64,000 nucleotides of DNA from Ignavibacteria bacterium (GCA_013177855.1 JABLYA010000001.1:2000983-2064982); one strand, 5' to 3'; shown: positions 1-17,274, counted from the stretch's first letter. Made by a program: numbers and translations. The notes: a model not told the origin generated them from the letters alone.

Positions 1-2418
1 ATTATGGCTGCAAATATTTTGCAACTTTATAAGAGGGGATATCGAAATTTTATATTTTTTGTTAATAGTGTAAATATCATTGAGAAAACACGGGATAATT
101 TCTTAAATCCTTTATCAGAAAAGTATCTTTTTGCTCCCAAAATCAAGTTTGGTGAAAAAGAAGTTCTTATAAAAGAGGTTCAAAATTTTGAGGGTGTTAA
201 TTCAGATAACATAAATATAATTTTTACTACAATTCAGGGATTGCATACCAGGCTAAATCAACCAAGAGAGAATGTTTTAACCGAAGAAGATTTTGAAGGA
301 AAAGATATTGTCTTAATTTCAGATGAAGCACATCATTTGCAAACATTAACCAGAAACAATAAAAATGAAAAGGAAATTGAAAAAAGCTGGGAATACACAG
401 TTTTAAAAAGAATATTTGAAAAAAATCGAAAAAATATCTTATTAGAGTTTACTGCTACTGTTGATTTAAATAACCCTGATATCAGAAATAAATATCAGGA
501 TAAGCTTATATTTCAATACGATTTAAAACAATTCAGACTGGACAAGTATTCAAAAGAGATAGAAGTTCTTCAAGCATCTTTAGAGCCAATTGATAGGGCT
601 TTACAGGCAGTTATTTTGAGTCAGTATCGCAGAAAAATTGCTGAAAAGCATAAGATACTCTTGAAACCTGTTATTCTTTTTAAATCAAAGAGTATTAAAG
701 AATCAAAAGAGAATTATGAAAAATTCTTAACTAAGATTAAAAATCTTTCCTTAAAAGATATTGAAAAGATAAAATCAAGGTCATCTGGAACTGATCTGGG
801 AAAGGCGTTTGAATATTTTGATAAAGAAAAAATAACACTTGATAATTTAATTAATGAATTAAAGATAGATTTCTCTGAAGAAAAGATTATGCTTTTGGAT
901 TCTGAGAATATTGATGAAGAGAAACAATTAAAACTTAATTCCCTTGAAAATCCAAACAATGAAATAAGAGCTATTTTTGCGGTCAATATGCTTAACGAAG
1001 GCTGGGATGTATTGAATTTATTCGATATTGTCAGATTGTATGATACACGGGACGGCAAAACTTTAAGAGATGGTACATATATTCCAGGCTCGACGACAAT
1101 GAGCGAAGCACAATTAATAGGAAGAGGGGCAAGGTATTTCCCATTTGTTATACAAAATAATGATGATATGTATCGAAGAAAATTTGATGATGATCTTGAT
1201 AATGAATTGAGAATAATTGAAACTTTACATTATCATTGTAAACATAATCCAAAATACATTTTTGAAATAAAGCAGACACTCACACAAATTGGAATTTTGC
1301 CTGAAAAGACATTTCAATATGACTTATTTGTTAAACCAGAAATAAAAAATAAAAATATTTGGAAAAGGGGATATATTTTTCAAAACGAAAGGCAAAAGAG
1401 GGATCGATCTGAAATTTTTAGTTTAAATGATATTCATATTAAAAATGAATATTATTACGAATTCCCCACTGGTCAAATTGAAGAAAGTTTTTTGTTCGAT
1501 GAACAAAATGTTATTAAATCAAAAACTAATGTAACCGAAATTTATCTTAATTTTCTTGATCTTGGTATAAATTTAATAAGAGCAGGAATGGATTATCTTG
1601 AATTTTATCGTTTCAATAATCTTAAAAGATATTTCCCAAATATTAATTCGATTAATGATTTTATTTTAGATAATAACTATCTGTCAGGAATAAAGGTTAA
1701 GATTAAAGGTCCAGATTTTAGAATTAATGAATTAACACAAAAAGATAAACTAAATATAGTTTTGTATGTTTTGACAAGTATTTCGGAAAAACTCATTACA
1801 ACTGATTCAGAGTATAGAGGAACGAAAGAATTTAAACCATACGAAATAAGTAAAGTCTTCTTTGATAGAAAAGTAAAGTATGATGTTTCAAATGCAGGTG
1901 GAATTAATCTTATTAGTTTCAATTATGATTGGTTTGCACAGACAAGTTTTTATGGTACATCCGAAGAAAGAAATTTTCTTGAATTTATATCAAGATTTAT
2001 AAAAGAGTTAAAAAAGAAATATAAAGAAGTATTTTTATTTAGAAATGAAAGGTATGTTAAGATATATAATTTTGATGATGGATCAGCTTTTGAACCCGAT
2101 TTTATTTTATTTCTCGTAGAGAAACAAAAATCCTCCAGAGGTTCAAAGAAGCGATATAAGTCAACAAAGAATGAGCGAATAATTAGTTACCAAATTTTTA
2201 TTGAACCAAAAGGAGATCTATTTTTAGATGCAAATGGTACATTTGAACATTCGAAAGAAGGTTGGAAGGAAAAATTCCTATTAAGACTTGAAAATGAAGC
2301 TGAAATATTTTTAGAATTTCAAAATTCAGAATACAAACTTTTAGGCTTACCTTTTTATAATCAACAACTTGAAGAAAGATTTCGGGAATTTTTTGAACAA
2401 AAATTATTGAGTCGATAA
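1..2418 (+). CDS. Type III restriction enzyme Res subunit (SF2 helicase + C-terminal PD-ExK nuclease), 5'-truncated by window edge
   Basis: Frame 1 is open from nt 1. A DEAH box (LISDEAHH) lies ~aa 105 with no Walker A upstream, so the N-terminus is off-window. The C-terminus has a PD...ExK-like signature (FEPDFILFLV ... FIEPKGD), as in Type III Res endonuclease domains. Confidence 0.55.
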   Translation: MMAANILQLYKRGYRNFIFFVNSVNIIEKTRDNFLNPLSEKYLFAPKIKFGEKEVLIKEVQNFEGVNSDNINIIFTTIQGLHTRLNQPRENVLTEEDFEGKDIVLISDEAHHLQTLTRNNKNEKEIEKSWEYTVLKRIFEKNRKNILLEFTATVDLNNPDIRNKYQDKLIFQYDLKQFRLDKYSKEIEVLQASLEPIDRALQAVILSQYRRKIAEKHKILLKPVILFKSKSIKESKENYEKFLTKIKNLSLKDIEKIKSRSSGTDLGKAFEYFDKEKITLDNLINELKIDFSEEKIMLLDSENIDEEKQLKLNSLENPNNEIRAIFAVNMLNEGWDVLNLFDIVRLYDTRDGKTLRDGTYIPGSTTMSEAQLIGRGARYFPFVIQNNDDMYRRKFDDDLDNELRIIETLHYHCKHNPKYIFEIKQTLTQIGILPEKTFQYDLFVKPEIKNKNIWKRGYIFQNERQKRDRSEIFSLNDIHIKNEYYYEFPTGQIEESFLFDEQNVIKSKTNVTEIYLNFLDLGINLIRAGMDYLEFYRFNNLKRYFPNINSINDFILDNNYLSGIKVKIKGPDFRINELTQKDKLNIVLYVLTSISEKLITTDSEYRGTKEFKPYEISKVFFDRKVKYDVSNAGGINLISFNYDWFAQTSFYGTSEERNFLEFISRFIKELKKKYKEVFLFRNERYVKIYNFDDGSAFEPDFILFLVEKQKSSRGSKKRYKSTKNERIISYQIFIEPKGDLFLDANGTFEHSKEGWKEKFLLRLENEAEIFLEFQNSEYKLLGLPFYNQQLEERFREFFEQKLLSR

Positions 2419-2979
2419 CCCATTAAAAACGATATTTTTTATCTTTAATAGTAAATTTCTATCTCTTTCAATTAACTTTATCTCTTTTTCACTCAAAATT
2501 GTCTCTTTTAACCTCATTGATGACTCTTTTCCAATAAACGATGGCTCTTTTTCACTTAACGATGCTTCTTTTTCACTCAACGATGGCTCTTTTTCAGTCA
2601 ACGATGGCTCTTTTTCAGTCAACGATGGGTCTTTTAGAACCAACGATGGGTCTTTTTCATTCAAAATTGGCTCTTTTTTACTCAACGATGGGTCTTTTAG
2701 AACCAACGATAGGTCTTTTTCATTCAAAATTGGCTCTTTTTTACTCAACGATGGGTCTTTTAGAACCAACGATGGGTCTTTTTCATTCAAAATTGGCTCT
2801 TTTTCACTCAACGATGGGTCTTTAAGAACCGACGATGGGTCTTTTTCACTCAAAATTGGCTCTTTTTCACTCAACGATGGGTCTTTAAGAACCAACGATG
2901 GGTCTTTTTCATTCAAAATTGGCTCTTTTAGACCCAACGATGGCTCTTTTTCACTAAAAACCGTTAATTTTTTGTTCAA
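2404..2979 (-). CDS. Heptad-repeat low-complexity protein (K(E/D)PxL(x)x repeats), hypothetical
   Basis: 191-aa ORF translated from the tandem repeat (EKEPILN/EKDPSLV/LKDPSLS...). The repeat length is a multiple of 3 and the ORF has a non-repetitive C-terminal tail. It overlaps the Res gene 3' end convergently by 15 nt. There is no signal peptide and no clear RBS, so its coding status is uncertain. Confidence 0.4.
   Translation of the reverse strand: MNKKLTVFSEKEPSLGLKEPILNEKDPSLVLKDPSLSEKEPILSEKDPSSVLKDPSLSEKEPILNEKDPSLVLKDPSLSKKEPILNEKDLSLVLKDPSLSKKEPILNEKDPSLVLKDPSLTEKEPSLTEKEPSLSEKEASLSEKEPSFIGKESSMRLKETILSEKEIKLIERDRNLLLKIKNIVFNGLSTQ
2461..2960. repeat. Coding tandem repeat: 21-bp primary unit (~23 copies) organised into a 63-bp higher-order unit (~8 copies)
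   Basis: Direct reading: aacgatgg(g/c)tcttttt(c/a)(a/t)t(t/c)caa units recur every 21 nt. 'attgg' recurs at 2666, 2729 and 2792, giving a 63-bp period. The period is a multiple of 3. Confidence 0.9.
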
Positions 2980-3345
2980 AAAAAGCTTTTTTCAGCGAGT
3001 TTTTTGGGTTTCCAGAATAAATAATTGTGCTTTAATCTTAAATTATGAAACAAAAGAGTTAATAAATTCCTACTAATTATCCAATAATTAATTTCATATC
3101 ATTTTTTTTTGATTATTTTTTCCTCAATTTTTAATTCCAGAATGTTTAATATTTCTACATAACCTACTTGAATTTTTCAACACCCCTAAACATTGAAAAA
3201 TCAAACAATTATAATTTTTTTAGCTTAGTATGTGATTAAAATTTCAACATTCCTTTATACAAATACAATTTTAGGTTTTCCCTTTTGTCTCTATATCTAT
3301 TTGTAATTTAAGGAGTTACGCTCATAATTCATCTCAGCGTTTTTC

Positions 3346-3360
3346 TGGCATTGCGTTTGA
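3346..3360 (+). promoter_or_regulatory. Candidate sigma54 (-24/-12) promoter: TGGCAT-N5-TTGA
   Basis: TGGCATTGCGTTTGA, with GG at 3347-3348 and TTGa where TTGC is expected at -12 (one mismatch in the GC dinucleotide). It lies ~55 nt upstream of the operon start at 3414, and a sigma54-dependent activator is encoded at 9324. Confidence 0.25.
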
Positions 3361-3413
3361 CCTTATATAATAGAAATAGTTGAATTAGAAACTAAAAAAT
3401 TGAGAGGTTAAAA

Positions 3414-4103
3414 ATGGTTGCATTATTTGTCTTATTAACTTTCGTTCTTATCATTTCAATAAACTTAATTGTCACGAAAGTTCGTGAAAAACGAATTTCG
3501 GTCTTTGAGGAAACTCAACCAGAGCCGGTCACTGGAACCGTATTTTCAAAAGAATCCATCTATGTCCCTCAGGGATTATATTATTCCAGAGGACACACCT
3601 GGCTCAATTTTTCTGAAGATGGTAAAATTAAACTCGGTATAGATGATTTTATCAACAAAGTATTAAAGCCAGGTAAAATATCTCCACTTAAAGCCGACGG
3701 CGATAAAATTTCGAAAGGCGAGCCGATCTTTGAAGTCTTTGCCAATGGAAGGAAAGTGAAAATTTATTCTCCTGTTGACGGCATTATTACTTCGCTAAAT
3801 AAATCAATCCTCGAAAATACTCAGCTGCTTAGAGAAAATCCTTATCGAGAGAATTGGTTAATTGAAATTGAACCAGCTGATGTAAAGGAAATTCTGCCAT
3901 CATTTAAGATTGGTAGAGAAGTTGTCAACTGGATGAAAGAGGAAGTAAACCGTTTCAAAGATTTGCTTGCCCATCTATCACCTAAACCATCGCTCGTCGG
4001 TGCAACACTTTATGATGGTGGAAATATCGTTGAAGGTGTTCTTAGAATGCTTGATGACAGCAGTCTTTCAAAATTCGAAGAAGAATTTCTGAAATTATCC
4101 TGA
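3414..4103 (+). CDS. Membrane-anchored glycine-cleavage-H-like (lipoyl-domain-like) protein
   Basis: N-terminal TM helix followed by K/R residues, so the domain is cytoplasmic. The region YYSRGHTWL..GKIKLGIDDF..G..ISKGEPIFEVFANGRKVKIYSPVDGII..N..L...P.LLRENPYRENWLIEI aligns motif-for-motif with GcvH (HEW, GITDxAQ, ESVKA..YAPVSG, PY..GWI), including candidate lipoyl-Lys positions. RBS gagagg precedes the start. Confidence 0.65.
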   Translation: MVALFVLLTFVLIISINLIVTKVREKRISVFEETQPEPVTGTVFSKESIYVPQGLYYSRGHTWLNFSEDGKIKLGIDDFINKVLKPGKISPLKADGDKISKGEPIFEVFANGRKVKIYSPVDGIITSLNKSILENTQLLRENPYRENWLIEIEPADVKEILPSFKIGREVVNWMKEEVNRFKDLLAHLSPKPSLVGATLYDGGNIVEGVLRMLDDSSLSKFEEEFLKLS

Positions 4104-4121
4104 AAAACCTGAGGTAGAAAG

Positions 4122-4898
4122 ATGAAAAGAAAAGCATTTCTGATTGATATAACCGAATGTGTCGGCTGCGGGGCTTGTTATGAAGCCTGCAAAGAACAAA
4201 ACAATCTTCCTCAAACTTCTGATGACCCTTTAAGGGATTCGCTCTCTGATAAAACATATACAATTGTTGAACAGCGAGGCGATTTCTTCGTGAGAAGAAT
4301 GTGTCAGCATTGTGAAGATCCAACCTGCGTTTCTGTTTGTCCTGTTGGTGCATTTACAAAGACTGAAGTTGGTGCAGTTCTTTACGATGAATCTAAATGT
4401 CTTGGATGCCGCTATTGTATGCAAGCCTGTCCATTCCAGATTCCGAGATATGAATGGGGCAGCGTGAAACCGAGAGTGCAAAAATGCATTATGTGTTATG
4501 ACCGAGTTAAGAATGGAGAACTGCCAGCCTGTGCGGAAGCCTGTCCAACTGGTGCAACCTTATTCGGTGATAGAGATGAGATGATTGAGATTGCAAAACA
4601 GAGACTCGCTGAAAATCCGGAAAAGTATTATCAGCATATTTATGGGCTTGAAGAAGTCGGCGGCACATCGGTTTTATATATTTCACCAGTACCATTCGAA
4701 GAACTCGGTTTCAATACAAAGTTATTGAAGACAGCTCTTCCAAATTTCACTCACGAAGCTTTAGCGAAGATTCCAACACTGGTAACAGTCGGCGGTGTAT
4801 TATTGACAGGTTTCTATTGGTTAACTAATCGAAAGAATGAAATTGCACGAGAAAAATTTGAGGAAAAGAAAAAACAAAACTTACGAGGTGAGGAATGA
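4122..4898 (+). CDS. NrfC/PsrB/HybA-type 4x[4Fe-4S] ferredoxin subunit with C-terminal TM anchor; no Tat signal
   Basis: Four Cys clusters (CVGCGACYEAC; CQHCEDPTCVSVCP; CLGCRYCMQACP; CIMCYDRV...CAEACP). A C-terminal hydrophobic helix (IPTLVTVGGVLLTGFYWL) is present. The N-terminus is MKRKAFLIDITE without an RRxF motif. Confidence 0.8.
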   Translation: MKRKAFLIDITECVGCGACYEACKEQNNLPQTSDDPLRDSLSDKTYTIVEQRGDFFVRRMCQHCEDPTCVSVCPVGAFTKTEVGAVLYDESKCLGCRYCMQACPFQIPRYEWGSVKPRVQKCIMCYDRVKNGELPACAEACPTGATLFGDRDEMIEIAKQRLAENPEKYYQHIYGLEEVGGTSVLYISPVPFEELGFNTKLLKTALPNFTHEALAKIPTLVTVGGVLLTGFYWLTNRKNEIAREKFEEKKKQNLRGEE

Positions 4899-6085
4899 AT
4901 CCAGCAATTGAAAGACTTCTCAAACCAACATTCTGGAAAGTTGTTGGAACTGTAATTTTTGTTCTTGGACTATATACGATCTATTTGAGATTTACAGGCG
5001 GACTTGCAGCAGTAACTAATTTAAATGATCATTTCCCCTGGGGATTGTGGATTGGTTTTGATATTCTTTGTGGAGTTGGAATGGCTGCCGGTGGTTTTAC
5101 GCTTTGTGCAATTGTCTACATCTTTAATATCAAAAAATTTAAACCAATCATTCGTCCAACTATATTAACTGCTTTTCTCGGATATTTACTTGTAATATTA
5201 GCTCTTCTGATAGATCTTGGAAGACCCTGGGCAATATGGCATGCAATAATTATGTGGAACCCAAGATCGGTTATGTTTGAAGTTGCCTGGTGTGTGATGC
5301 TTTATACTACTGTTCTTTTTCTTGAATTCAGTCCTGTTATACTTGAAAGATTTAAAGTTGAAAAGCTATTAAAAATAATTCGAGGAATAACAATCCCGCT
5401 TGTAATTCTGGGAATTTTACTTTCCACTCTTCATCAATCTTCACTTGGAGCTTTGTATTTAATTGTTCCGAGTAAAATGCATCCATTATGGTATTCAACA
5501 AATCTTCCATGGTTTTTCTATTTGAGTGCGATAGGTGTTGGCTGTGCGATGATAATTTTTGAATCATATCTCAGCGCCAAAGCATTTAAGAAAAATCTTG
5601 AATTTGATCTGGTCTCCGATGTTGGAAGATGGATTGTGGTTGTAATGAGTGCATATTTAACATGGAGATTTATGGATTTACTTTTGAATGATAAACTTAA
5701 TCTTTTGTTTGTAAATTCTATTGAAACATATCTCTTCTGGCTTGAGATAATTATTGGTGCAATTATTCCAATAATTTTGCTTGCTCAACCAAGAATAAGA
5801 TTAAATCGTGTGGGACTATTCGTATCTGCGTGTTTTGTAATTGGTGGATTTTTACTGAATAGATTGAATGTGAGTGTGACATCTCTTCAAGCATCATCGG
5901 GAGTTTCTTATTTCCCATCGGTGTATGAAATTATAATAACATTATTCCTTGTAACCTTAGGAGTAACTATCTTTAATCTTGCAGTCCAATATCTGCCTGT
6001 TTATGAAAAAACAAAAGAAACAATTCCAATTGAATTCGAAGTTATTTCTGACGATGAACTAAAGACAGAACCAGCAACAAAATGA
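4895..6085 (+). CDS. NrfD/PsrC/HybB-family integral membrane quinone-interacting subunit
   Basis: ~396 aa with 8-10 predicted TM helices and NrfD-like conserved stretches (WGLWIGFDILCGVGMAAGG; LGRPWAIWHAIIMWNPRSVMFEVAW). Its start overlaps the previous stop by 4 nt. Confidence 0.8.
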   Translation: MNPAIERLLKPTFWKVVGTVIFVLGLYTIYLRFTGGLAAVTNLNDHFPWGLWIGFDILCGVGMAAGGFTLCAIVYIFNIKKFKPIIRPTILTAFLGYLLVILALLIDLGRPWAIWHAIIMWNPRSVMFEVAWCVMLYTTVLFLEFSPVILERFKVEKLLKIIRGITIPLVILGILLSTLHQSSLGALYLIVPSKMHPLWYSTNLPWFFYLSAIGVGCAMIIFESYLSAKAFKKNLEFDLVSDVGRWIVVVMSAYLTWRFMDLLLNDKLNLLFVNSIETYLFWLEIIIGAIIPIILLAQPRIRLNRVGLFVSACFVIGGFLLNRLNVSVTSLQASSGVSYFPSVYEIIITLFLVTLGVTIFNLAVQYLPVYEKTKETIPIEFEVISDDELKTEPATK

Positions 6086-6783
6086 GTTTAAAAATGATTT
6101 CTCAAAAATGTATCTGGATGGAATGTGGTTATGTCGAGTACAAACTATGCGATAGGAATTTTGACTGCGAGAACTGTCCATTTGATAAATCAATTAAGGC
6201 TGAAAGAGGAAACCGCTTTATCTCAGATTCAATAAAAAACAAAAGGGATATCAGCGAAATAAAAATTACACCAAATCATTTATGGTTTTATAAGAATGGC
6301 AATGTTTTCACTTTCGGGCTTGATAACTTTGCTCAGAAATTTTTTAATTCTGGCTGTTCGATTCACTTGCCTTTACTAAATTCAAGACTTTTTTCTGGTA
6401 AGACTATTCTATGGATTATTGGATCATTTGGTGCAATTGGGTTTCACTCACCGGTCAATGGTTCAGTTTTATGGATTAATGAATCGATTAAAGATAATCC
6501 ATCTTTGTTTTTTGAAGCTGATCCTTTTTCAATTGAACTTATAAAGGTTGAAAGCGATGACGATAAAATTGAAGGCAAAATTTATGATTTTAATGATTAC
6601 AAAGATTTAGTTTATCAGGATAATCTTCTGGCTCGTGAATTCTTATTAAAAAGATTTACAATTTCTGGTGATGGAATTTCTACGCTTCCTGATGGTGGCG
6701 ATTTAAAAATGGATTACTTAAAAACATTGTCCAATCAGGATTTTATTCAACTTTTAAAACTATTATTCAACAAAAAAATATAG
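6082..6783 (+). CDS. Cys-rich N-terminal motif + second GcvH-like domain protein (no lipoyl-Lys), hypothetical
   Basis: N-terminus CIWMECGYVEYKLCDRNFDCENCPFD (5 Cys: Cx4Cx7Cx5Cx2C). It is followed by HLWFYKNGNVFTFGLDNFAQ...GSFGAIGFHSPVNGSVLWINESI..NPSLFFEADPFSIELIKV, a GcvH-like pattern lacking Lys at the lipoylation position. An ATGA overlap with the NrfD-like stop implies translational coupling. Confidence 0.55.
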   Translation: MSLKMISQKCIWMECGYVEYKLCDRNFDCENCPFDKSIKAERGNRFISDSIKNKRDISEIKITPNHLWFYKNGNVFTFGLDNFAQKFFNSGCSIHLPLLNSRLFSGKTILWIIGSFGAIGFHSPVNGSVLWINESIKDNPSLFFEADPFSIELIKVESDDDKIEGKIYDFNDYKDLVYQDNLLAREFLLKRFTISGDGISTLPDGGDLKMDYLKTLSNQDFIQLLKLLFNKKI

Positions 6784-6795
6784 GGAGAAACTGTT

Positions 6796-7311
6796 ATGAA
6801 AAAACTTCTGATATTAGCACTCTCAATAATTATATGTTCTTCTTACAATCTCTTTGCTCAGAATAAATATGTTGGTGTAAAAACCTGTATGGCCTGTCAT
6901 AAAGGCGAGAAGGGAAAGATGGTTTACGAGAACTGGTTGAAGACAAAACATGCTCAAGCTTACAAAACACTCGAAACACAAAAATCAAAAGACATTGCAA
7001 AGAAGATGAACTTAAAATCTGATCCAACTGAAGCACCAGAATGTTTAAAATGTCATGCAACAGGTTATTTCCCTGGTGAACAGACAATGTCTACAAATAA
7101 AAAAGAAGATGGCGTAACCTGTGAAGCCTGTCACGGACCAGGCTCTGCTTACAAGAACAAACACGGAAAAGAAAAAACTGAAGAAGGTAAAAAACTCGGT
7201 TTAGTAATAGGTACTGACGACGAAAAGATTTGTAAAAAATGTCATAACCCTGAAAGTCCAACCTTCGCTGGATTTAATTACAAAAAAGACTGGGAAAAAG
7301 TTAAACACTAA
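6796..7311 (+). CDS. Periplasmic tetrahaem cytochrome c (c3-like)
   Basis: Signal peptide MKKLLILALSIIICSSYNLFA. Four CXXCH motifs are present (CMACH, CLKCH, CEACH, CKKCH) in 171 aa. RBS ggga precedes the start. Confidence 0.85.
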   Translation: MKKLLILALSIIICSSYNLFAQNKYVGVKTCMACHKGEKGKMVYENWLKTKHAQAYKTLETQKSKDIAKKMNLKSDPTEAPECLKCHATGYFPGEQTMSTNKKEDGVTCEACHGPGSAYKNKHGKEKTEEGKKLGLVIGTDDEKICKKCHNPESPTFAGFNYKKDWEKVKH

Positions 7312-7370
7312 AAATTTTTTGAATGTAAGCTTAGTTTCAAATTAGTTGATTAATTTCTTTAAAATATTAT

Positions 7371-7467
7371 GGTTTTCTCGATACAGTTCTTTAGAGATTT
7401 AATTTTAATTAGAAGTTTATCCGAGAGGTTTTTTATTTAAGGGTTAGGTGACTGTATCGAGAGAACC
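7371..7467. promoter_or_regulatory. 17-bp near-perfect inverted repeat (ggttttctcgatacagt / actgtatcgagagaacc) separated by 63 nt
   Basis: Seen directly: arms at 7371-7387 and 7451-7467 with one mismatch. The pair sits in the 341-bp gap between the cytochrome operon and the sensor kinase, and the right arm is followed by a T/A-rich run. Confidence 0.4.
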
Positions 7468-7655
7468 TTTAATTAAAATTCCCGCAGATAAAAAGTTGAA
7501 TTTAAGTTCAGTAATAAAAGTAGAAAAAAAATAAATTCAGAATAGAATTAATAAATCAGACTGAATAAATCCTATCTCCGATAAAATAGTTATTAATTGT
7601 TAATTGTAACTTCTTCCCATTCTCTTTAAGTTTACAGTGAGGAGAGGAAAATGTG

Positions 7656-9314
7656 ATGGAAGAAAAAAATAATTTCGAACAGGTGAATTCATCTCAGGGC
7701 AAGTCAGAAAATTCAAGGAAAACTTGTTTCTGCAAGACCTTAGCTTTTAAGTTATTTATAAGCCTTATCTTTTTATTCATTATAATCTTTTTTATTACAA
7801 CTGTAATTCTCATCGATCAAAACAAAAAGCAGATTTTTGAAATAGTAGAGAAAAATATCATACGAACTGGTGATATTATAAAACGCTCGACAAGATACTC
7901 AATGCTTTTAAACCGAAGAGAAGATGTGTATCAAATAATCAAAACAATAGGGAATGAAGAGGAAGTCGCTGGAATAAAAATCTACAATAAACTCGGAATT
8001 GTCTCTTTTGCACACATTGATACTTTGATTAATCGAAAAGTTGATATGAATTCAGAAGAATGCTCGCCCTGTCATTCTATCAATAATCCCAAACTTTACA
8101 TTACAACCGATGAAAGAATAAGAATATTTCAAAACGAAAAAGGCGAAAGAATCATTGGATTAATTATTCCTATCGAAAATGAACCTGATTGCTGGAATAG
8201 TTCCTGTCACGCCCACAATGAACAGCAAAGAATTCTTGGTGTGATCGATGTTCAAATGTCCCTGAACTCAGTTGATAAAATCATTCAAAAAAATAAAAGC
8301 AGCCTTATCTTTTATTCTATTTTAATTACAATGATTGTTTCCATTTTTAGTGGAATTTTTATCTGGTTAATGGTTCATTTAAGAGTTAAAAATTTAATAA
8401 GAGGCACAAAAGAACTTGCTAAAGGTAATTACAACTTCCGAATAAATTTAAAATCGAATGATGAGCTTGGTGAATTGTCAAAAGATTTCAACTATATGGC
8501 TGAAAATTTAAAGAAAGCTCTCGAAGAGATTAAAGCTTTGAATGAAAATCTTAATATCAAAGTAAAAGAGAAAACTCATCAGCTCAAAGAAATTTATAAT
8601 CATGTTAATCAAATTGAAAGAATTGCATCGCTCGGAAAACTTTCCGCCACGGTTGCTCACGAACTAAATAACCCGCTCGAAGGAATTTTAACTTATTCGA
8701 AACTGATTATAAAAAAACTAAACAACAATGTAACGGACGAAGAAAAGAAAAAAATTATTCAGTATTTAGAATTAATTGCAGCTGAATCAGAAAGATGCGG
8801 GAATATTGTTAAAAACCTGCTTCTCTTTTCGAGATCAGGTGAAACTAAAGTCGCTCAAAATGATCTGATTAACATTATTGAAAGAGGTTTAATGCTTATA
8901 AATCATCACCTCCAGCTTAATAACATTCATCTGATAAAAGACTTTTGCTGCAATTATCTTGAATTCGAATGTGATAAAAATCAAATACAGCAAGCAATCC
9001 TGGCAATTTTAATTAATGCTATTGAAGCAATGCCGGAGGGTGGAACATTAACAGTAAAAGTTACTTGTGATGGAAGCTTGGTATTCATTCAAATTACTGA
9101 TACAGGAGTTGGAATCCCCAAAGAAAATCTAGATAAAATTTTTGAACCATTTTTTTCGACAAAACCGGGTGGAAAAGGAACTGGTCTCGGATTATCAGTT
9201 GTCTATGGTATTGTTAAACAACACAACGGAAAAATTGAAATTCAAAGTGAGGTTAATAAAGGCACTACAGTTACTCTCATTTTTCCTAAAAAAGCAGTTG
9301 CAGAAATGGGATGA
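7656..9314 (+). CDS. Sensor histidine kinase with periplasmic haem-c-binding motifs (CXXCH + CX4CH), HAMP, HisKA, HATPase
   Basis: TM1 at ~aa 33-55. The periplasmic segment contains CSPCH and CWNSSCH. TM2 is followed by a HAMP region, an H-box ([15 protein letters not shown]) and G-boxes (DTGVGIP, GTGLGLS). ATG at 7656 is preferred over the GTG at 7653 because of the RBS gaggagagg. Confidence 0.8.
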
Positions 9315-9323
9315 GGTAAAATT

Positions 9324-10667
9324 ATGAATAATTCAGATGTAAAAATTTTAATTGTTGATGATGAACAAATTGTCAGAGAATCTCTCACTCACTGGTTTGA
9401 AGAAGATGGTTATCAGGTAAGCTCTGCTGCCGATGCGTTCGATGTGTTGAAAGATCTTCATCCAGGCAAGTATGATATTATGCTGGTCGATATTAAGATG
9501 CCAAAGATGAGTGGATTGGAACTGCTTGAAAAAGTTAAAGAAATTGATCCCGATTGCATTGTAATAATTATCACTGCCTATGCTTCAGTACCTTCTGCAG
9601 TTCAAGCTTTGAAGAATGGCGCTTTTGATTATGTAACCAAACCAATTGATCCAGATGAACTATCGCACCTGATAAAAAATGCAATCAAACAAAAAAAGTT
9701 GAAAGAGGAGAATGTTGCACTTAAAGCAAGCATTGATGAAATGTTCAGTTTTGAAGGATTGATTGGTGAAAGTCCCGAGATGAAAAAAGTTTTCGAATTG
9801 ATAAAAATTGTTGCACCACAGGATACAACTGTTATGATTCGAGGAGAAAGCGGAACAGGGAAAGAATTAATTGCTCGTGCAATTCATATGAATTCACCAA
9901 GGAGGTATTATCCCATAATTCCGGTTAATTGCGGTGCATTTACAGAGACACTTCTTGAAAGCGAACTTTTTGGACACGAGAAGGGAGCTTTTACAGGTGC
10001 TCAATACCGCAGAAAAGGTAAAATTGAAATGGCAAACGGTGGGACACTTTTTCTGGATGAAGTCGGAAGTGTCTCTCAAAAAATGCAGGTAGAATTACTT
10101 CGTGTACTTGAAACAAAACAATTCACTCGTGTTGGTGGAACTGAGATTGTAAAAGTAGATTTCCGATTAATCTCTGCAACAAACGAAAATCTTGAAAGAC
10201 TTGTTGAAGAAGGAAAATTTAGAGAGGATTTGTATTACCGTTTGAATGTTTTTACAATTTATGTCCCGCCGCTCAGGGAGAGAAGAAGTGATATACCTGT
10301 CCTTGCAAATTATTTTGTTCAGAAATTTGCCCGACAGATGAATAAACCAATCTTGAAAATTTCAGATGAAGCGATGGAAATACTTTTGAATCATTCCTGG
10401 CCTGGAAATGTTCGTGAACTTGAAAACGCAATTGAAAGAGCAATGGTAGTTGGAAAACCACCTGAAATAAAACCTTCCGATTTGCCTTTCCACTTAGAAA
10501 AAGTTAATTCGTTTGAGAGTGATTCCCTTGAAGAGGTAGAGAAAAAACACATCCAGAGAGTGCTGAGTAAATATGACTGGAATATCTCAAAAGCGGCTCA
10601 AGCATTAAACATTGATCGAGTAACCCTGTACAATAAAATCAAAAAGTATGGCTTACAGAAAAATTAA
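9324..10667 (+). CDS. Sigma54-dependent response regulator (NtrC/AtoC family): receiver + AAA+ sigma54-activation + HTH
   Basis: Receiver (ILIVDDE, D at DIKMP), Walker A (GESGTGKE), GAFTGA motif, Arg-finger region, and a C-terminal Fis-type HTH. RBS gaggtaaa precedes the start. Confidence 0.9.
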   Translation: MNNSDVKILIVDDEQIVRESLTHWFEEDGYQVSSAADAFDVLKDLHPGKYDIMLVDIKMPKMSGLELLEKVKEIDPDCIVIIITAYASVPSAVQALKNGAFDYVTKPIDPDELSHLIKNAIKQKKLKEENVALKASIDEMFSFEGLIGESPEMKKVFELIKIVAPQDTTVMIRGESGTGKELIARAIHMNSPRRYYPIIPVNCGAFTETLLESELFGHEKGAFTGAQYRRKGKIEMANGGTLFLDEVGSVSQKMQVELLRVLETKQFTRVGGTEIVKVDFRLISATNENLERLVEEGKFREDLYYRLNVFTIYVPPLRERRSDIPVLANYFVQKFARQMNKPILKISDEAMEILLNHSWPGNVRELENAIERAMVVGKPPEIKPSDLPFHLEKVNSFESDSLEEVEKKHIQRVLSKYDWNISKAAQALNIDRVTLYNKIKKYGLQKN

Positions 10668-10670
10668 TTT

Positions 10671-11195
10671 ATGGATCAAGCCGCTCTAATTTTATTAAAT
10701 TTTAATGCTGTCTCACTTTACGATAAAATTACAAATAACCTTAAACAACATTTCAACTTAAATTCAAGAACAATTATCCCGGATATTGATTTAAGAAAAT
10801 TTTATTCAGAAGAACGTGATCAATATTATTCGACAAAGTTAATTGAGTATGCACTCTTAAATTATTCAGAATTTAAGAAGATTTTAATGATTACCGACTT
10901 CGACCTTTATGTTCCAGTCTTGACATTTGTTTTTGGTGAGGCTCAATTAAATGGAAAAGCGGCTATTGTATCAGCACACAGACTCTATCCTGAATTCTAT
11001 GGTTTACCACCTAATGATGAGCTGTTTATATCAAGATTGATAAAAGAAATAAATCACGAACTTGGGCATACCTATGGTTTGCGTCACTGCTTCAATTTCG
11101 AATGCGTAATGCATTCTTCGTCAAATGTTGATGAAATCGATATAAAGTCTGAAAACTTTTGTAATAAATGTTTGGAAAAACTTAATCTCTTTTGA
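10671..11195 (+). CDS. amzA: Archaemetzincin-family zinc metallopeptidase (M54)
   Basis: HELGHTYGLRHCFNFECVMH-x16-CNKC matches the archaemetzincin signature HExxHxxGxxHCx4CxMx17CxxC. It starts 4 nt after the RR stop. Confidence 0.7.
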   Translation: MDQAALILLNFNAVSLYDKITNNLKQHFNLNSRTIIPDIDLRKFYSEERDQYYSTKLIEYALLNYSEFKKILMITDFDLYVPVLTFVFGEAQLNGKAAIVSAHRLYPEFYGLPPNDELFISRLIKEINHELGHTYGLRHCFNFECVMHSSSNVDEIDIKSENFCNKCLEKLNLF

Positions 11196-11204
11196 GTGGA
11201 TCAT

Positions 11205-11915
11205 CCCGAAGCTTTGCGTTCTTTGTATCTTCGCGTTTTAATTCATTTTCAACATTCATTCTTCAATAATATCATCCCTTCGAAATTTTAATTTTTTGGT
11301 TGTATTTTCATTCCTATAATAATTTCATCCCTTCGGGATTTTATTTTTTTTGTTGCATTTTCATTTCTATAATAATTTCATCCTTTCAGGATTTTTTGAG
11401 TGATAGATATAACTTCTTTCCAAAATTAACATATCTAATCTTTGCGAACCTTTGCGTTCTCTGCGTCTTTGCGTTTGAAAGAATTTTAGACTTTAATTCT
11501 TCAAAAATTTCATCCCTTCGGAATTTTAATTTTTTGGTTGCATTTTCATTTCTATAATAATTTCATCCTTTCAGGATTTTTTTTGAGTGATAAATAAAAT
11601 TTCTTTCTAAACTAAAAAACTAATCTTTGCGAAACTTTGCGTTCTTTCCGTCTTTGCGTTTGAAAGAATTTTTGACTTTACTTTTTCAATAATGTCATCC
11701 CTTCGGGATTTTAATTTTTTTTGTTGCATTTTCATTTCTATAATAATTTCATCCCTTCGGGATTTTAATCTATTTATTGCTTCTTCATTTCTATAATAAT
11801 TTCTTCCTTTCAGGATTAGACTTTTTGGGGATAAATTTTTTTCAAAAACTAAATCAAATGATCTTTGCGAAACCTTGTGTTCTTTGCGTCTCTGCGTTTG
11901 AAGAATCATTTACAC
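11205..11915. repeat. Intergenic composite repeat array: ~4 degenerate copies of a ~195-230-bp unit, each with a (c)tttgcg-rich block and 2-3 short tetraloop hairpins followed by T-runs
   Basis: tctttgcgaa..ctttgcgttct.tgcgtctttgcgtttgaa blocks begin at ~11213, 11438, 11634 and 11862. Hairpins atcccTTCGggat+tttaatttttt and atcctTTCaggat+tttttt recur 8+ times. ORFs 11300-11557(+) and 11607-11909(-) lie over the repeats and are likely spurious. Confidence 0.8.
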
Positions 11916-11960
11916 TATAATCCACTCAATTCTTTATTTTAGAAAAAAAGGAGTTTAAAA

Positions 11961-12362
11961 ATGGAAATAAATTTACTTGCAGTTCTTGTATGTTCAATCT
12001 TCACTTTCATTTTAGGCGGATTATGGTATTCAAAACTTTTATTTGCTAATCTGTTTATGAAAAATATAAACAAGACCGAAGAAGAACTAAAAAAAGGTGG
12101 AGTTGGTCTTACATTTATTTATGAGTTTATTGCAATTTTAGTAACTAACTATGTTCTTGCTGCCGTTATCCTTTTTGTTGGTGCCGCCGATTTCTGGAGA
12201 GGATTTCAAATTGGAATTATACTCTGGATTGGATTTGTTGCAATGACTCATCTTTCAACGGTTACTTTTGAAAAAAGAAATTTCAATCTCTATTTAATTC
12301 AAATCACCTATCGTTTAATTGCGATTTCAATTTCAGCAGGAATACTTGCAGTCTGGAAATAA
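11961..12362 (+). CDS. Small integral membrane protein (DUF1761-like), hypothetical
   Basis: 133 aa with 3-4 hydrophobic helices. RBS aaggag precedes the start. Confidence 0.5.
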   Translation: MEINLLAVLVCSIFTFILGGLWYSKLLFANLFMKNINKTEEELKKGGVGLTFIYEFIAILVTNYVLAAVILFVGAADFWRGFQIGIILWIGFVAMTHLSTVTFEKRNFNLYLIQITYRLIAISISAGILAVWK

Positions 12363-12378
12363 AAACAGGAGATTAATA

Positions 12379-14406
12379 ATGCGAAAGTTTATCATTTTTT
12401 ACTTAATCATTTCTATTAATTTAATTTTTGCTCAAAGCAAGCGGGCGTTAGAAATTGATGATATGTTTAAGATTAAAAGAATTTCACAAACGACATTATC
12501 GCCTGATGACCGTTACATTGCTTTTGTTGTGACATCATTCAGTATGGAAGAGAATAAAGGGACAAGTGATATCTGGATTCTTGATTTAAAAACTGGTGAA
12601 CAAAAAAATCTAACAAACTCACCATATTCAGAAAGTTCACCTGTATGGTTTCCTGACTCAAAAACTCTAGCATTTGTCTCGATGAAAACTGGTACACCAC
12701 AGATTTTCAAAATGAATGTTGAAACTCAATCAGAGCCAGAACAATTAACAAATCTTTCAACAGGAGCAACTGGTCCAGTTGTTTCAATTGATGGCAAAAA
12801 AATACTTTTTGTTTCTGAAGTCTATCCAGATTGTCTTAATGATGATTGTAACAAAGAAAAAGAAGAGGCAAAAGAGAAAAGTAAAGTTAAAGCCAGAATA
12901 ATTACGGAATTAATGTATCGTCACTGGGATTCCTGGAGAGATGAAAAACGAAGTCATCTCTTCTTGCTTGATCTACAGACTAAAGAAATAAAAGATATCA
13001 CTGAAGGCAGTCAATACGATTGTCCGCCAATCGCGCTTGGTGGAAAACTTGACTATGTGTTTTCACCAGATGGAAAAGAAATTTGTTATGTAACCAATAC
13101 AGATAAGATGTTGGCAATTTCAACTAATAACGATTTGTGGATCTCAACCCTTGATGGTAAGGTGAAACGAAAAATAACAACAAACAGAGGAAATGATAAT
13201 CAACCAGTTTATTCTCCAAACGGAAAATTTATTGCATATAGACAGATGGCAAGACCAGGATTTGAAGCTGACAGACAAACATTAATGCTTTATGATCGTG
13301 AGAAAAATACAATTACAAATCTCACTGAAAATTTTGATCGTTCAGTTGAAGAAGTTTTATGGCTTCCCAATTCAAAGGAAATAATTTTCACGGCTGATAA
13401 TCAGGGCAGAAGAGTTATTTATCACCTCGATATTTCTACAAAGAAAATTACAACACTTTACGATAAACATTGGAATACCGATTTAAATCTTTCAAGCGAT
13501 GGCAGTTTCTTAGTCTTCAATCAAAGCTCTGTTACTCGACCAGTTGATATTTTCAAATTTGATTTAAAGAAAAAGCAATTAACCCAGCTCACTAAATTAA
13601 ATGATGAATTATTATCTCAAATCGAAATGATGCCTCTTGAAGAATTCTGGTCAAAAGGCGCTGATGGTGTGATGGTGCATAGTTTAATGATTAAGCCTCC
13701 ATTTTTTGATCCAAACAAAAAATATCCGATGGTGTTTTTAGTTCATGGTGGTCCTCAGGGTGCCTGGGAAGATTTATGGCATTACAGATGGAATCCAGAA
13801 CTATATGCATCACGCGGTTATGTTGTTGTGATGCCAAATCCGAGAGGAAGTACGGGTTATGGTCAAAAATTTACTGATGAAATAAGCGGCGATTGGGGCG
13901 GAAAAGTTTATAAGGATTTAATGAATGCCTATGACTATGCAATTAAGAATTTCAAATTCATTGATCCGGAAAAAACAGTTGCTGCTGGAGCATCCTATGG
14001 CGGTTATATGATGAACTGGATTGCCACTCAAACAAACCGCTTCAAAGCAATTGTCACTCACGCTGGAGTTTTCAACACAGAAAGTATGTATGGAACAACT
14101 GAAGAATTATGGTTCCCTGAGTGGGAATTTAAAGGAACGCCATGGACTAATAGAAAGCTATATCAGAAATATTCGCCGCATATGTATGTTGATAAAATAA
14201 AAACGCCAATGCTTGTTACTCATGGAGCTTATGATTTTCGCGTACCAGAATCACAAGCCTTTGAGTTGTTTACATCATTGCAGAGACTTGGTGTTCCGTC
14301 CAGATTTGTTTATTTCCCGGATGAAACACACTTTGTTGCAAAACCGCAAAACTTCAAATTATGGATGACGGAAATTTTCAATTGGTTTGAAAAATGGTTG
14401 AAGTGA
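12379..14406 (+). CDS. S9-family serine peptidase (prolyl oligopeptidase/acylaminoacyl-peptidase type) with N-terminal beta-propeller
   Basis: Signal peptide. TolB/PD40-like repeats are present. The C-terminal alpha/beta hydrolase has a GASYGGYM nucleophile elbow plus D...H (HGAYDFRVP). The in-frame ATG at 12379 has RBS aggag. Confidence 0.8.
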   Translation: MRKFIIFYLIISINLIFAQSKRALEIDDMFKIKRISQTTLSPDDRYIAFVVTSFSMEENKGTSDIWILDLKTGEQKNLTNSPYSESSPVWFPDSKTLAFVSMKTGTPQIFKMNVETQSEPEQLTNLSTGATGPVVSIDGKKILFVSEVYPDCLNDDCNKEKEEAKEKSKVKARIITELMYRHWDSWRDEKRSHLFLLDLQTKEIKDITEGSQYDCPPIALGGKLDYVFSPDGKEICYVTNTDKMLAISTNNDLWISTLDGKVKRKITTNRGNDNQPVYSPNGKFIAYRQMARPGFEADRQTLMLYDREKNTITNLTENFDRSVEEVLWLPNSKEIIFTADNQGRRVIYHLDISTKKITTLYDKHWNTDLNLSSDGSFLVFNQSSVTRPVDIFKFDLKKKQLTQLTKLNDELLSQIEMMPLEEFWSKGADGVMVHSLMIKPPFFDPNKKYPMVFLVHGGPQGAWEDLWHYRWNPELYASRGYVVVMPNPRGSTGYGQKFTDEISGDWGGKVYKDLMNAYDYAIKNFKFIDPEKTVAAGASYGGYMMNWIATQTNRFKAIVTHAGVFNTESMYGTTEELWFPEWEFKGTPWTNRKLYQKYSPHMYVDKIKTPMLVTHGAYDFRVPESQAFELFTSLQRLGVPSRFVYFPDETHFVAKPQNFKLWMTEIFNWFEKWLK

Positions 14407-16602: not shown

Positions 16603-17274
16603 ATGAGAATACTTCTTGTTGAAGACGAAAAGAAAGTTGCTTCATTTATTAAAAAAGGACTTGAAGAAGAATATTATACTGTTGATGTTGCGTATGATGG
16701 AAAAGAAGGCAGTAAACTTGCCCTTTCTGAAGAGTATGATTTGATAATTTTAGATTTAATGCTTCCCTATAAAGATGGAATCAATATTTTAAAAGAGATA
16801 CGCGATGCAAAGCTTTCGGTACCTGTGTTAATTTTAACAGCGAAAGGATCAGTTCAAGATAAAGTAACCGGTCTCGATTCTGGCGCGGACGATTATTTGG
16901 CTAAACCATTTTCTTTCGATGAGTTACTTGCAAGAATAAGAGCACTTCTAAGAAGATATTCAACAGAAAAATCTATCTTACTAAAAGCTGATGATTTAAA
17001 GATGGATTTACAATCTCGAAAAGTTTTTAGAGGGAATAAAGAAATTCAATTAACTTCAAAAGAATTTTCTATCCTCGAATATCTATTAAGAAATAAAAAT
17101 CGTATCGTGACAAGGACAAAGTTAATAGAACATATTTATGAATATAATTTTGATCCGGAAACAAATTTAATTGATGTTTACATTAATAAACTTCGAAACA
17201 AAATTGATAAAGGATTTGATAAACAACTAATACACACAATTCGCGGCGCGGGTTATATACTAAAAGATGATTAA
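16603..17274 (+). CDS. OmpR-family response regulator (receiver + winged-helix)
   Basis: MRILLVEDE...D(LMLP)...K, and a C-terminal trans_reg_C region (LTSKEFSILEYLLRN..., RGAGYIL). Confidence 0.9.
   Translation: MRILLVEDEKKVASFIKKGLEEEYYTVDVAYDGKEGSKLALSEEYDLIILDLMLPYKDGINILKEIRDAKLSVPVLILTAKGSVQDKVTGLDSGADDYLAKPFSFDELLARIRALLRRYSTEKSILLKADDLKMDLQSRKVFRGNKEIQLTSKEFSILEYLLRNKNRIVTRTKLIEHIYEYNFDPETNLIDVYINKLRNKIDKGFDKQLIHTIRGAGYILKDD

Follow-up and report, generated by a model that had tools for sequence, protein, structure and literature searches.

A predicted dihaem Cache-domain sensor kinase and a sigma-54 activator encoded beside a conserved redox operon in an Ignavibacteria bacterium

In the 64,000-nucleotide (nt) stretch of Ignavibacteria bacterium DNA analysed here (GCA_013177855.1, JABLYA010000001.1:2000983-2064982; hereafter the window), genes for a sensor histidine kinase, an NtrC-type sigma-54 enhancer-binding response regulator and an archaemetzincin-family metalloprotease follow one another downstream of an operon for redox proteins (Table 1). 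The periplasmic sensor domain of the kinase carries two Cys-Cys-His motifs that are predicted to bind haem c, and a sigma-54-type element with candidate activator-binding dyads precedes the operon. An initial annotation of this DNA had proposed a haem-sensed, sigma-54-dependent switch over the redox operon, and comparison with related loci supports that proposal through the motifs, the synteny and the conserved DNA sites. We consider it probable that a dihaem-type Cache kinase and its sigma-54 activator form a two-component redox switch wired to the adjacent operon.

The kinase reading frame may begin at GTG 7653 (553 amino acids (aa)) or at ATG 7656 (552 aa), and public annotations show both lengths; in an exact-sequence look-up, they name the protein merely 'HAMP domain-containing protein' or 'ATP-binding protein'. 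The gene starts 342 nt 3' of the tetrahaem cytochrome gene, the last of the operon that begins at 3414. Hydropathy analysis placed two transmembrane segments (TM1 and TM2) at about aa 30-54 and aa 217-241, with Lys and Arg residues before the first and after the second; because these flanks mark the cytoplasmic sides, the motifs CSPCH and CWNSSCH (aa 180-186, nt 8190-8210) lie in a periplasmic loop of ~160 aa. Translation and hydropathy thus bear out the two motifs that the initial annotation had placed in the periplasmic loop of the kinase. Pfam detected HAMP (PF00672, aa 244-287), HisKA (PF00512, aa 327-396) and HATPase_c (PF02518, aa 441-547), all above cut-offs, and found no domain in the first 240 residues when the full protein was scanned. 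By these features the protein is a HAMP-containing class I sensor histidine kinase, with the phospho-acceptor His336 lying within VAHELNNP.

The regulator gene encodes the complete set of domains expected of its class: Response_reg (PF00072), Sigma54_activat (PF00158, 239.5 bits), AAA_lid_14 (PF25601) and HTH_8 (PF02954), with Asp56, the Walker A motif at aa 174 and GAFTGA at aa 221. This full domain set and the GAFTGA motif agree with the earlier assignment of the protein as an NtrC-type enhancer-binding regulator. The best NCBIfam matches, to AtoC (474 against a cut-off of 714 bits), NtrC (433 against 559) and ZraR (408 against 760), were all under the equivalog cut-offs; the regulator resembles these proteins in its REC-AAA+-HTH (receiver, ATPase, helix-turn-helix) order and its sigma-54 dependence, and is not an orthologue of any of them by score.

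Table 1. Positions of the features discussed, counted from the first nucleotide of the window.
Feature	Position	Strand	Remarks
Candidate distal dyad, site 1, GTTTAATATTTCTAC	3144-3158	+	2 mismatches to GTTGAA-N3-TTCAAC; ~195 nt 5' of -24
Candidate distal dyad, site 2, CTTGAATTTTTCAAC	3167-3181	+	1 mismatch; 23 nt from site 1; ~172 nt 5' of -24
Candidate proximal dyad, site 3, GATTAAAATTTCAAC	3234-3248	+	~105 nt 5' of -24
-24/-12 element TGGCAT-N5-TTGA, TGGCATTGCGTTTGA	3346-3360	+	54 nt before ATG 3414
GcvH-like protein 1, first operon gene	3414-4103	+	PF01597 E=1.3e-17; N-terminal membrane helix
HmcB/HybA-like four-cluster Fe-S protein, C-terminal membrane helix	4122-4898	+	NF045715 HmcB 272 bits, HybA 198 bits (both below equivalog cut-offs); Fer4_11
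HmcC/HybB-like NrfD-family integral membrane (quinone-interacting) subunit	4895-6085	+	PF03916; NF045714 HmcC 343 bits, HybB 309 bits (both below equivalog cut-offs)
GcvH-like protein 2, N-terminal Cys cluster CX4C...CX5CX2C	6082-6783	+	PF01597 E=6.4e-7
Periplasmic tetrahaem cytochrome c (c554-like), signal peptide, 4 CXXCH	6796-7311	+	PF13435 E=1.4e-19
Sensor histidine kinase	7656-9314	+	TM1, periplasmic dihaem-type (predicted) single Cache, TM2, HAMP, HisKA (His336), HATPase_c
Periplasmic sensor domain, aa 55-216, single Cache/PDC fold (modelled)	7815-8300	+	AlphaFold2 + Foldseek
Met84, candidate distal haem ligand	7902-7904	+	Invariant in 123 representatives and 39 orthologues
Haem site 1 (predicted), C137-S-P-C140-H141, canonical CXXCH	8061-8075	+	Insertion between Cache strands 2 and 3
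Haem site 2 (predicted), C180-WNSS-C185-H186 (CX4CH), then A-H188	8190-8216	+	Aligns to CQSCH of GSU0582
NtrC-type sigma-54 enhancer-binding response regulator, 447 aa	9324-10667	+	REC Asp56, AAA+ GAFTGA, Fis-type HTH
Archaemetzincin-family Zn metalloprotease	10671-11195	+	NF033823 166.9 bits, cut-off 145; start 4 nt after regulator stop
Terminator-like hairpin + T-run 3' of archaemetzincin gene	11327-11339	+	Consensus match only

Among all open reading frames (ORFs) of at least 100 aa in the 64 kb, only the tetrahaem cytochrome and the kinase contain any CX2-4CH motif. This restriction to two ORFs, together with conservation across the family, argues that the motifs of the kinase are not there by chance. 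Orthologue counts given here refer to 80 fetched loci, the family itself being spread more widely, over 286 species-level genomes. The initial annotation had let its haem proposal stand or fall with the conservation of these Cys and His residues in orthologues, and both CXXCH and CX4CH-x-H are kept in 79 of the 80, across six or more phyla; the sole exception, L010, has CTACH, a canonical CXXCH, at site 2. In 123 representatives clustered at 50% identity, C86, C89 and H90 (site 1) are invariant and C129, C134, H135 and H137 (site 2) are at least 90% conserved. The second motif, which the initial annotation had called a rare but documented attachment variant, is unusual only with respect to the canonical spacing: CX4CH is the norm of this family (at least 204 of ~270 family proteins by a strict pattern, and most of the others by eye) rather than a peculiarity of this kinase, and CX2-4CH haem motifs have indeed been documented in Geobacter transducers (PMC8396549). 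Rare natural variants at site 2 comprise CXXCH (2 proteins), CX3CH and CX5CH among the ~270 proteins. Because site 2 varies in its Cys-Cys spacing and keeps the His after the second Cys, it behaves as a haem-attachment motif rather than as a fixed metal or disulfide site. We predict that two haems are covalently attached to the periplasmic domain of the kinase.

The residues that could complete the coordination of these haems are few. Met84 and His188 are the only invariant Met and His of the domain besides the two proximal His (H188 is conserved in 195 of 210 cases). As two such extra residues are the number of distal ligands required by two six-coordinate haems, Met84 and His188 are likely to be the distal ligands, although this assignment is more speculative than that of the attachment sites.

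The fold of the sensor domain fits this picture. The AlphaFold2 model of aa 52-220 (mean predicted local distance difference test score (pLDDT) 92.9; predicted template modelling score (pTM) 0.87) comprises, in order, a long helix, a second helix, two strands, an insertion that carries site 1, two further strands, a short helix that carries site 2, a last strand and a C-terminal helix; a short helix lies at model residues 87-90, around site 1. The best Foldseek matches in the Protein Data Bank (PDB) were the extracellular Cache domains of WalK/YycG, KinD, CitA and DctB (E 1e-7 to 1e-3). The model and these matches together indicate that the sensor is a single Cache (PDC) domain. The sole Pfam match of the domain was PF21563 ('Mcp40H-20_sensor'), at 22.5 bits (E=1.4e-4) and thus under the gathering score of 27; among 39 family members, 26 reached E<=0.01 with this model, the best value being 3.4e-7, and several database homologues bear a precomputed match to it. 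PF11845 gave no match for the kinase at E<=10 and matched 1 of the 39 family members (E=4e-4). We therefore treat the sensor, on sequence comparison, as a distinct branch of covalent-haem sensors that belongs to neither PF21563 nor PF11845.

The initial annotation had suggested a search for relatives among the haem-PAS sensors of Geobacter, and the outcome was a top-ranking but weak match. PDB sequence searches with the single sensor sequence or with an 11-sequence profile returned noise only, and a word-indexed search for homologues with the profile yielded mostly fragments and no Geobacter names. With the profile of the 39-sequence family, the best PDB match was 3B42, at E=0.02, which is the periplasmic haem-c sensor domain from the chemoreceptor GSU0582 of Geobacter sulfurreducens. 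In the alignment, 'PIxNExxC-xxxx-CH' stands opposite 'PFPNEQRCQSCH', and, over a longer stretch, '...LGLINPIxNExxC-xxxx-CHxH' stands opposite '...LSLVLPFPNEQRC-QS-CH'; the family-profile line lGlinPiknekeCsnaeCHaH is set against LSLVLPFPNEQRCQ--SCH of 3B42, so that in both proteins the haem motif comes after a 'PxxNE' strand and before the last strand. Chain positions in 3B42 equal the GSU0582 protein numbering minus 33, as counted from the alignment, and His143 of GSU0582 is the His of the aligned CQSCH. By this weak alignment, the CX4CH motif is thus homologous to a haem site that has been proven by structure, but has two more residues separating its Cys. Between the aligned blocks, the family has ~17 residues more than GSU0582, and CSPCH is among them; its location inside this insertion suggests that site 1 is an added second haem site. 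Met84 falls one residue off Met60 of GSU0582, in a non-significant stretch of the weak alignment.

These comparisons also bear on two readings with fewer haems. In one, a single haem sits at CSPCH and CX4CH-x-H forms a disulfide or a metal site, acting as a thiol or metal switch or in a structural role. The non-canonical spacing would suit such a site, as would the clustering of conserved potential metal ligands (C, C and H, plus H188). In contrast, CX4CH is matched in the alignment to the haem site seen in the GSU0582 crystal structure, the Geobacter haem-c signal transducers have CX2-4CH as their reported signature (PMC8396549), and the CXXCH, CX3CH and CX5CH variants at site 2 would be tolerable for haem and unusual for a fixed metal site; we regard this reading as quite unlikely. 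In the other, no haem is present, and the four Cys pair up in two periplasmic disulfides or make up a Zn or Fe site in an ordinary ligand-binding Cache domain. Cache domains generally do bind their ligands without a cofactor, and WalK, CitA and DctB, which the model resembles, are cofactor-free. However, an invariant His directly follows the second Cys in both motifs, the domain is homologous to a haem-c sensor, and it resides in the periplasm of an organism that produces cytochrome c, all of which makes a haem-free domain extremely improbable.

On the DNA side, the element TGGCAT-N5-TTGA that the initial annotation had reported upstream of the redox operon was found 5' of its first gene and matches TGGCAY-N5-TTGM exactly, as no other site in the 64 kb does; matches with one mismatch were not enriched in the window. 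The canonical sigma-54 element is TGGCAC-N5-TTGC, with GG at -24 and GC at -12. As a sigma-54 promoter, the element is thus weak when judged from the single genome with its TTGA, and its orthologous position in other genomes is what argues for it. In 36 of 51 loci, the pattern [TC]GG[CAT]A[CT]-N5-TTG[ACG] occurs in the 300 nt that precede the first operon gene, where the rate expected for these loci is 0.023 per 300 nt, and several of the loci that lack it have a one-mismatch version at the same distance. Although the intergenic alignment of the seven closest relatives is only 63% identical, TGGCA and the TG of the -12 half do not vary, and most of the invariant positions of that alignment fall in the blocks of the promoter and the dyads. 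Other matches, to TGGAAT-N5-TTGA at 40.8-43.1 kb, were dismissed as chance, as they lie inside ORFs.

The dyads upstream of the element strengthen the case for a sigma-54 promoter. Of 37 upstream regions, 31 contain the heptamer TGTTGAA/TTCAACA, compared with 8.5% of background windows, and the dyad GTTGAA-N3-TTCAAC (with at most 2 mismatches) occurs as 69 sites in 33 of the 37 regions, the expectation being 0.056 per 260 nt. The TTCAACA of dyad site 2 is invariant in the 7 close relatives. Distances from the dyads to -24 are fixed, at ~105, 172 and 195 nt in Ignavibacteria-like loci and ~119, 197 and 219 nt in Kryptoniota/Bacteroidota-like loci. In the classical NtrC-type enhancer layout, two distal sites 22-23 nt apart and one proximal site lie 100-220 nt 5' of the -24/-12 element. 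The dyads at 3144-3248 are therefore candidate activator-binding sites. At 3 mismatches the dyad is not enriched over the whole AT-rich window, and its significance lies in position and cross-species conservation only.

At E<=1e-3, a profile of the sensor region matched 2,324 cluster representatives among 1.84 billion, of which 435 passed E<=1e-30. Relatives occur in the 286 species-level genomes across Ignavibacteria, Kryptoniota, KSB1, Bacteroidota, Acidobacteriota, Gemmatimonadota and Schekmanbacteria, and this branch of kinase sensors is not covered by any Pfam or NCBIfam model. In at least six phyla, the recurrent gene order is GcvH-like, HmcB-like, HmcC-like, GcvH-like, kinase, regulator and archaemetzincin. 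The regulator gene lies directly 3' of the kinase gene in all 71 loci with enough sequence, the archaemetzincin gene follows the regulator in 63 of 68 loci across phyla, and in 52 of 60 loci the kinase gene is preceded on its strand by GcvH-like, HmcB-like and HmcC-like genes. The tetrahaem cytochrome is confined to an Ignavibacteria subset (10 of 60 loci).

This synteny has to be weighed against the possibility that the kinase-regulator pair is a mere neighbour of the operon, in which case another activator would serve the sigma-54 promoter or the pair would control distant genes. Binding of the regulator at the dyads is a prediction from sequence, the HmcBC genes are not directly upstream in 8 of 60 loci, and the kinase operon seems to have a promoter region of its own. 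Against this stand the conservation of the gene order across six or more phyla, the co-variation of the dyad positions with the regulator lineage and the lack of any other linked activator gene in most loci. We therefore consider such an accidental association very unlikely, and infer that the regulator encoded at 9324-10667 would control the promoter at 3346-3360.

The products of the operon point to a membrane-bound redox function. The Fe-S protein ends in a highly basic tail that follows its C-terminal membrane helix. Neither GcvH-like protein has a conserved residue at the lipoyl-lysine position, as judged by alignment with E. coli GcvH, and the two paralogues share a C-terminal extension that ends in 'TLxDGG...F..FL'; the N-terminal Cys cluster of the second could bind an Fe-S cluster or a metal. 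The C-terminal helix and basic tail of the 4122-4898 protein suggest that its Fe-S domain is periplasmic; however, the protein has no Tat signal peptide, and the sequence upstream leaves no space for one. HmcBC and HybAB likewise pair a four-cluster Fe-S protein with an NrfD-type membrane subunit, but the operon differs from them in having no hydrogenase, no HmcA and no Tat signal, and in the two non-lipoylated GcvH-like proteins that flank the pair. Because GcvH-like proteins flank the HmcB/HmcC-like pair in most related loci, an undescribed quinone-linked complex is suggested. In the literature, we found no description of the combination of GcvH-like, NrfD and archaemetzincin proteins.

Taken together, these observations allow a mechanism to be proposed for the probable redox switch. 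The cytochrome-c maturation system would attach two haems to the Cache domain, one at C137 and C140 with His141 as the proximal ligand and one at C180 and C185 with His186 as the proximal ligand, and Met84 and His188 would serve as distal ligands. By analogy with GSU0582 and GSU0935, oxidation or reduction of the haem may change its coordination, with Met going on or off, and thereby alter the conformation of the Cache domain. Through TM2 and HAMP, this change would reach the DHp/ATPase core (His336), which would set the phosphorylation of Asp56 of the activator; the phosphorylated activator would then oligomerize on the three dyads and drive ATP-dependent opening of the sigma-54 promoter at 3346-3360, the last two steps being drawn from general knowledge of these protein families. 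The output would be the quinone-interacting NrfD/Fe-S module and the two non-lipoylated GcvH-like proteins, plus, in Ignavibacteria, the tetrahaem cytochrome.

For the Geobacter sensors that serve as the analogy, the ligand chemistry has been described: in GSU0582, His143 is the proximal ligand of the covalent haem and Met60 the redox-linked distal ligand, and GSU0582 and GSU0935 are high-spin when oxidized and Met-bound low-spin when reduced, with midpoint potentials of -156 and -251 mV (PMC8396549). NO and CO also bind to these proteins and displace Met60 (PMC8396549), and signalling-type sCache_heme domains have been reported as NO sensors (PMC12889525). As site 2 is homologous to the haem site of GSU0582, the haem domain might instead be a gas sensor for NO, CO or O2, with an operon that answers nitrosative or oxidative conditions. 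However, the conserved target is a quinone-linked redox module and not a set of detoxification genes, no gene for NO reductase, flavohaemoglobin or a hybrid-cluster protein is linked to it, and the second haem and the invariant extra His (CHxH) suggest an electron relay or a six-coordinate arrangement. We therefore think gas sensing unlikely, and ligand displacement by NO or CO would be a less likely trigger than redox change.

Several points weigh against the redox switch as we have drawn it. The haem, both in this kinase and in the whole branch, is a prediction from sequence, and the sequence does not narrow down the physiological signal. The AlphaFold2 model was built without haem, and the loop of site 1 is its least confident part (pLDDT 70-78). 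The kinship with GSU0582 is weak by both of the scores given above. The view that two haems are bound presupposes a host maturation system that accepts CX4CH; the window contains no CcsA/CcmF Trp-rich motif, and the 80 fetched loci gave no usable ccsA signature. That the organism matures c-type cytochromes is indicated by the tetrahaem cytochrome with a signal peptide encoded alongside, and cytochrome-c maturation genes can be presumed in the genome on the same ground. In the promoter, the -24 half is canonical and the -12 half is TTGA in place of the canonical TTGC. As the promoter pattern and the dyad consensus were set after inspection, their significance is somewhat inflated; even so, the enrichment over background is ~30-fold or more, and the positions are conserved. 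No RpoN box was found in the window or the 80 fetched loci, which gave no usable rpoN signature, and a literature search on rpoN in Ignavibacterium found nothing relevant; the presence of rpoN in the genome may be presumed from the intact GAFTGA activator.

A broader interpretation, which we put forward tentatively and consider possible rather than likely, is that the kinase, activator and archaemetzincin genes, the GcvH/HmcB/HmcC/GcvH operon and the fixed promoter architecture constitute one ancient, self-contained redox module. Its dihaem sensor would read the redox state of the periplasm or the quinone pool and induce an undescribed quinone-linked enzyme that acts on non-lipoylated GcvH-fold carriers. 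The phyla that share it are Ignavibacteriota, Kryptoniota, KSB1, Bacteroidota, Acidobacteriota and Gemmatimonadota, and its promoter consists of three dyads and a -24/-12 element of the TTGA type. If this interpretation is true, the module would represent a new respiratory or redox-homeostasis complex with a dedicated haem-based regulator.

The three genes from the kinase to the archaemetzincin may also form a transcription unit. A TTAAGTTTG block is conserved in six relatives ~20 nt 5' of the kinase start; in the window it has the form TTAAGTTTA (7626-7634) and is followed by a ribosome-binding site, GAGGAGAGG. We take this block to resemble the Bacteroidetes -7 element TAnnTTTG, which suggests, as a lead only, a separate promoter for the three genes. 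The terminator-like hairpin at 11327-11339 is probably the 3' end of the unit; terminator and sigma-70 scans gave sites that were not enriched over shuffles. Between the cytochrome and kinase genes lies another, long hairpin (7371-7467), with 17-nt arms that are 94% complementary and a second stem nested inside (RNA fold -32.8 kcal/mol, z=-3.15). We asked whether it might serve the conserved module as a regulatory RNA or an activator site, and rejected this because the hairpin is missing from that place in the five closest relatives; a terminator or a small insertion would be possible explanations. An Rfam scan of 1-14000 gave no match.

Further features of the window and of related loci lie around these genes. 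At 4-2418, an ORF of 804 aa has the helicase domain of the type III restriction enzyme res-subunit (ResIII), matched at its N-terminus from profile position 41; its listed start is an ATG at position 4, and the window start may cut its 5' end. Between this restriction-enzyme gene and the regulatory region of the operon lies a tandem array (2482-2955) with a period of 21 nt (22.6 copies) or 63 nt (6.5 copies, 91% matches), of which both strands are open: the minus strand has an ORF of 191 aa with 'KEPSL/KDPSL' repeats, the plus strand one of 94 aa. Words like TCAAC occur in the array, which raised the idea of a decoy for the regulator; this was rejected because the array is absent from the related loci L001 and L002. 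About 6 kb downstream of the kinase-regulator unit, an unrelated second two-component pair (16603-18703) consists of an OmpR-type regulator and a HAMP kinase. Many Ignavibacteriales loci have a second HmcB/HmcC-like pair upstream on the opposite strand, with a second kinase-like gene and receiver-domain matches (L041, for example at L041:14765-16102, L044, L055-L058, L071, L075-L077 and L079), and a second sigma-54 activator paralogue, 53-59% identical, is found a few kb downstream in L041, L044, L055, L056, L058, L071 and L077. The module appears to have been duplicated in the Ignavibacteriales lineage.

Covalent-haem periplasmic sensors and sigma-54 control of quinone-linked respiratory modules are already known. 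We found no description in the literature of the branch with CX4CH plus CXXCH, of its distribution in the FCB group (Fibrobacterota-Chlorobiota-Bacteroidota) and Acidobacteriota, of the enhancer architecture or of the target operon. To our knowledge, covalent-haem periplasmic sensors amount to a handful in Geobacter and Desulfovibrio and the sCache_heme domains, and their signals and regulated genes are mostly undescribed. Unlike most such sensors, the system studied here offers a readable circuit of sensor, activator, three dyads, promoter and target operon across phyla, and the link from haem chemistry to gene expression could be tested directly in vitro or in the cultivable relative Ignavibacterium album, which has the orthologous loci L002 and L008. 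In addition, some 200 natural examples of CX4CH where relatives use CXXCH would be useful for defining the substrate range of cytochrome-c maturation systems, and the operon points to an uncharacterized quinone-linked membrane complex with GcvH-like subunits.

Comparison with known systems places the kinase and regulator among several partial likenesses. In the kinase core, AtoS and ZraS are the top NCBIfam matches, with scores so far under the equivalog cut-offs that they are not orthologues, and the sensor domains of AtoSC and ZraSR are unrelated to that of the kinase. GSU0582 and GSU0935 (3B42 and 3B47; PF21563) resemble it more closely at the sensor: in each, a periplasmic domain of Cache/PDC fold lies between two transmembrane segments and is followed by HAMP, the haem motif comes after a 'P-x-x-N-E' strand, as site 2 does here; a conserved Met in the N-terminal helix region of the kinase may correspond to Met60. 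These two proteins are, however, chemoreceptors with one haem on CXXCH, whereas the kinase has CX4CH-x-His and a second motif, CXXCH, in the insertion of ~17 residues. The sCache_heme domains (DUF3365/Tll0287, PF11845; PMC12889525) share with the kinase the Cache fold, a short haem-c helix before the last strand and signalling outputs that include kinases; they differ in having one haem, a canonical CXXCH that is ~99% conserved and phyletic enrichment in other phyla (PMC12889525). The preprint on sCache_heme (Deshpande et al. 2026), which covers DUF3365/Tll0287 plus GSU0582/0935, does not mention dihaem or CX4CH forms (PMC12889525). DcrA of Desulfovibrio vulgaris, set beside the kinase here by its description, also has a covalent haem in a periplasmic sensor, for which redox or oxygen sensing has been proposed (PMC8396549), but with a chemoreceptor output and a single haem. 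Two-motif signal transducers with the signature CX2-4CH have been reported from Geobacter and Anaeromyxobacter as well, namely GSU0591, GSU0599, Adeh_2011 and Adeh_3383 (PMC3831638, PMC8396549), and a second haem site in the kinase is in line with them; such a group was noted by Londer et al. (2006), as cited in PMC3831638.

The closest functional precedent is provided by one of these proteins and its neighbour. BccR (GSU0598) is an NtrC-type regulator encoded beside GSU0599, a two-component protein for which two c-haem motifs are listed (PMC8396549); we liken GSU0599 to the kinase by this description, and its role is not addressed in the study of BccR (bioRxiv 10.1101/2021.04.15.440034). According to that study, induction of the quinone oxidoreductase CbcBA at falling redox potential needs BccR, a sigma-54 activator (bioRxiv 10.1101/2021.04.15.440034). 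The two systems differ in that the BccR system has divergent genes and the bc-type cytochrome CbcBA as its target, whereas the kinase-regulator pair studied here is encoded by tandem genes and has as its predicted target an NrfD/Fe-S module with GcvH-like proteins.

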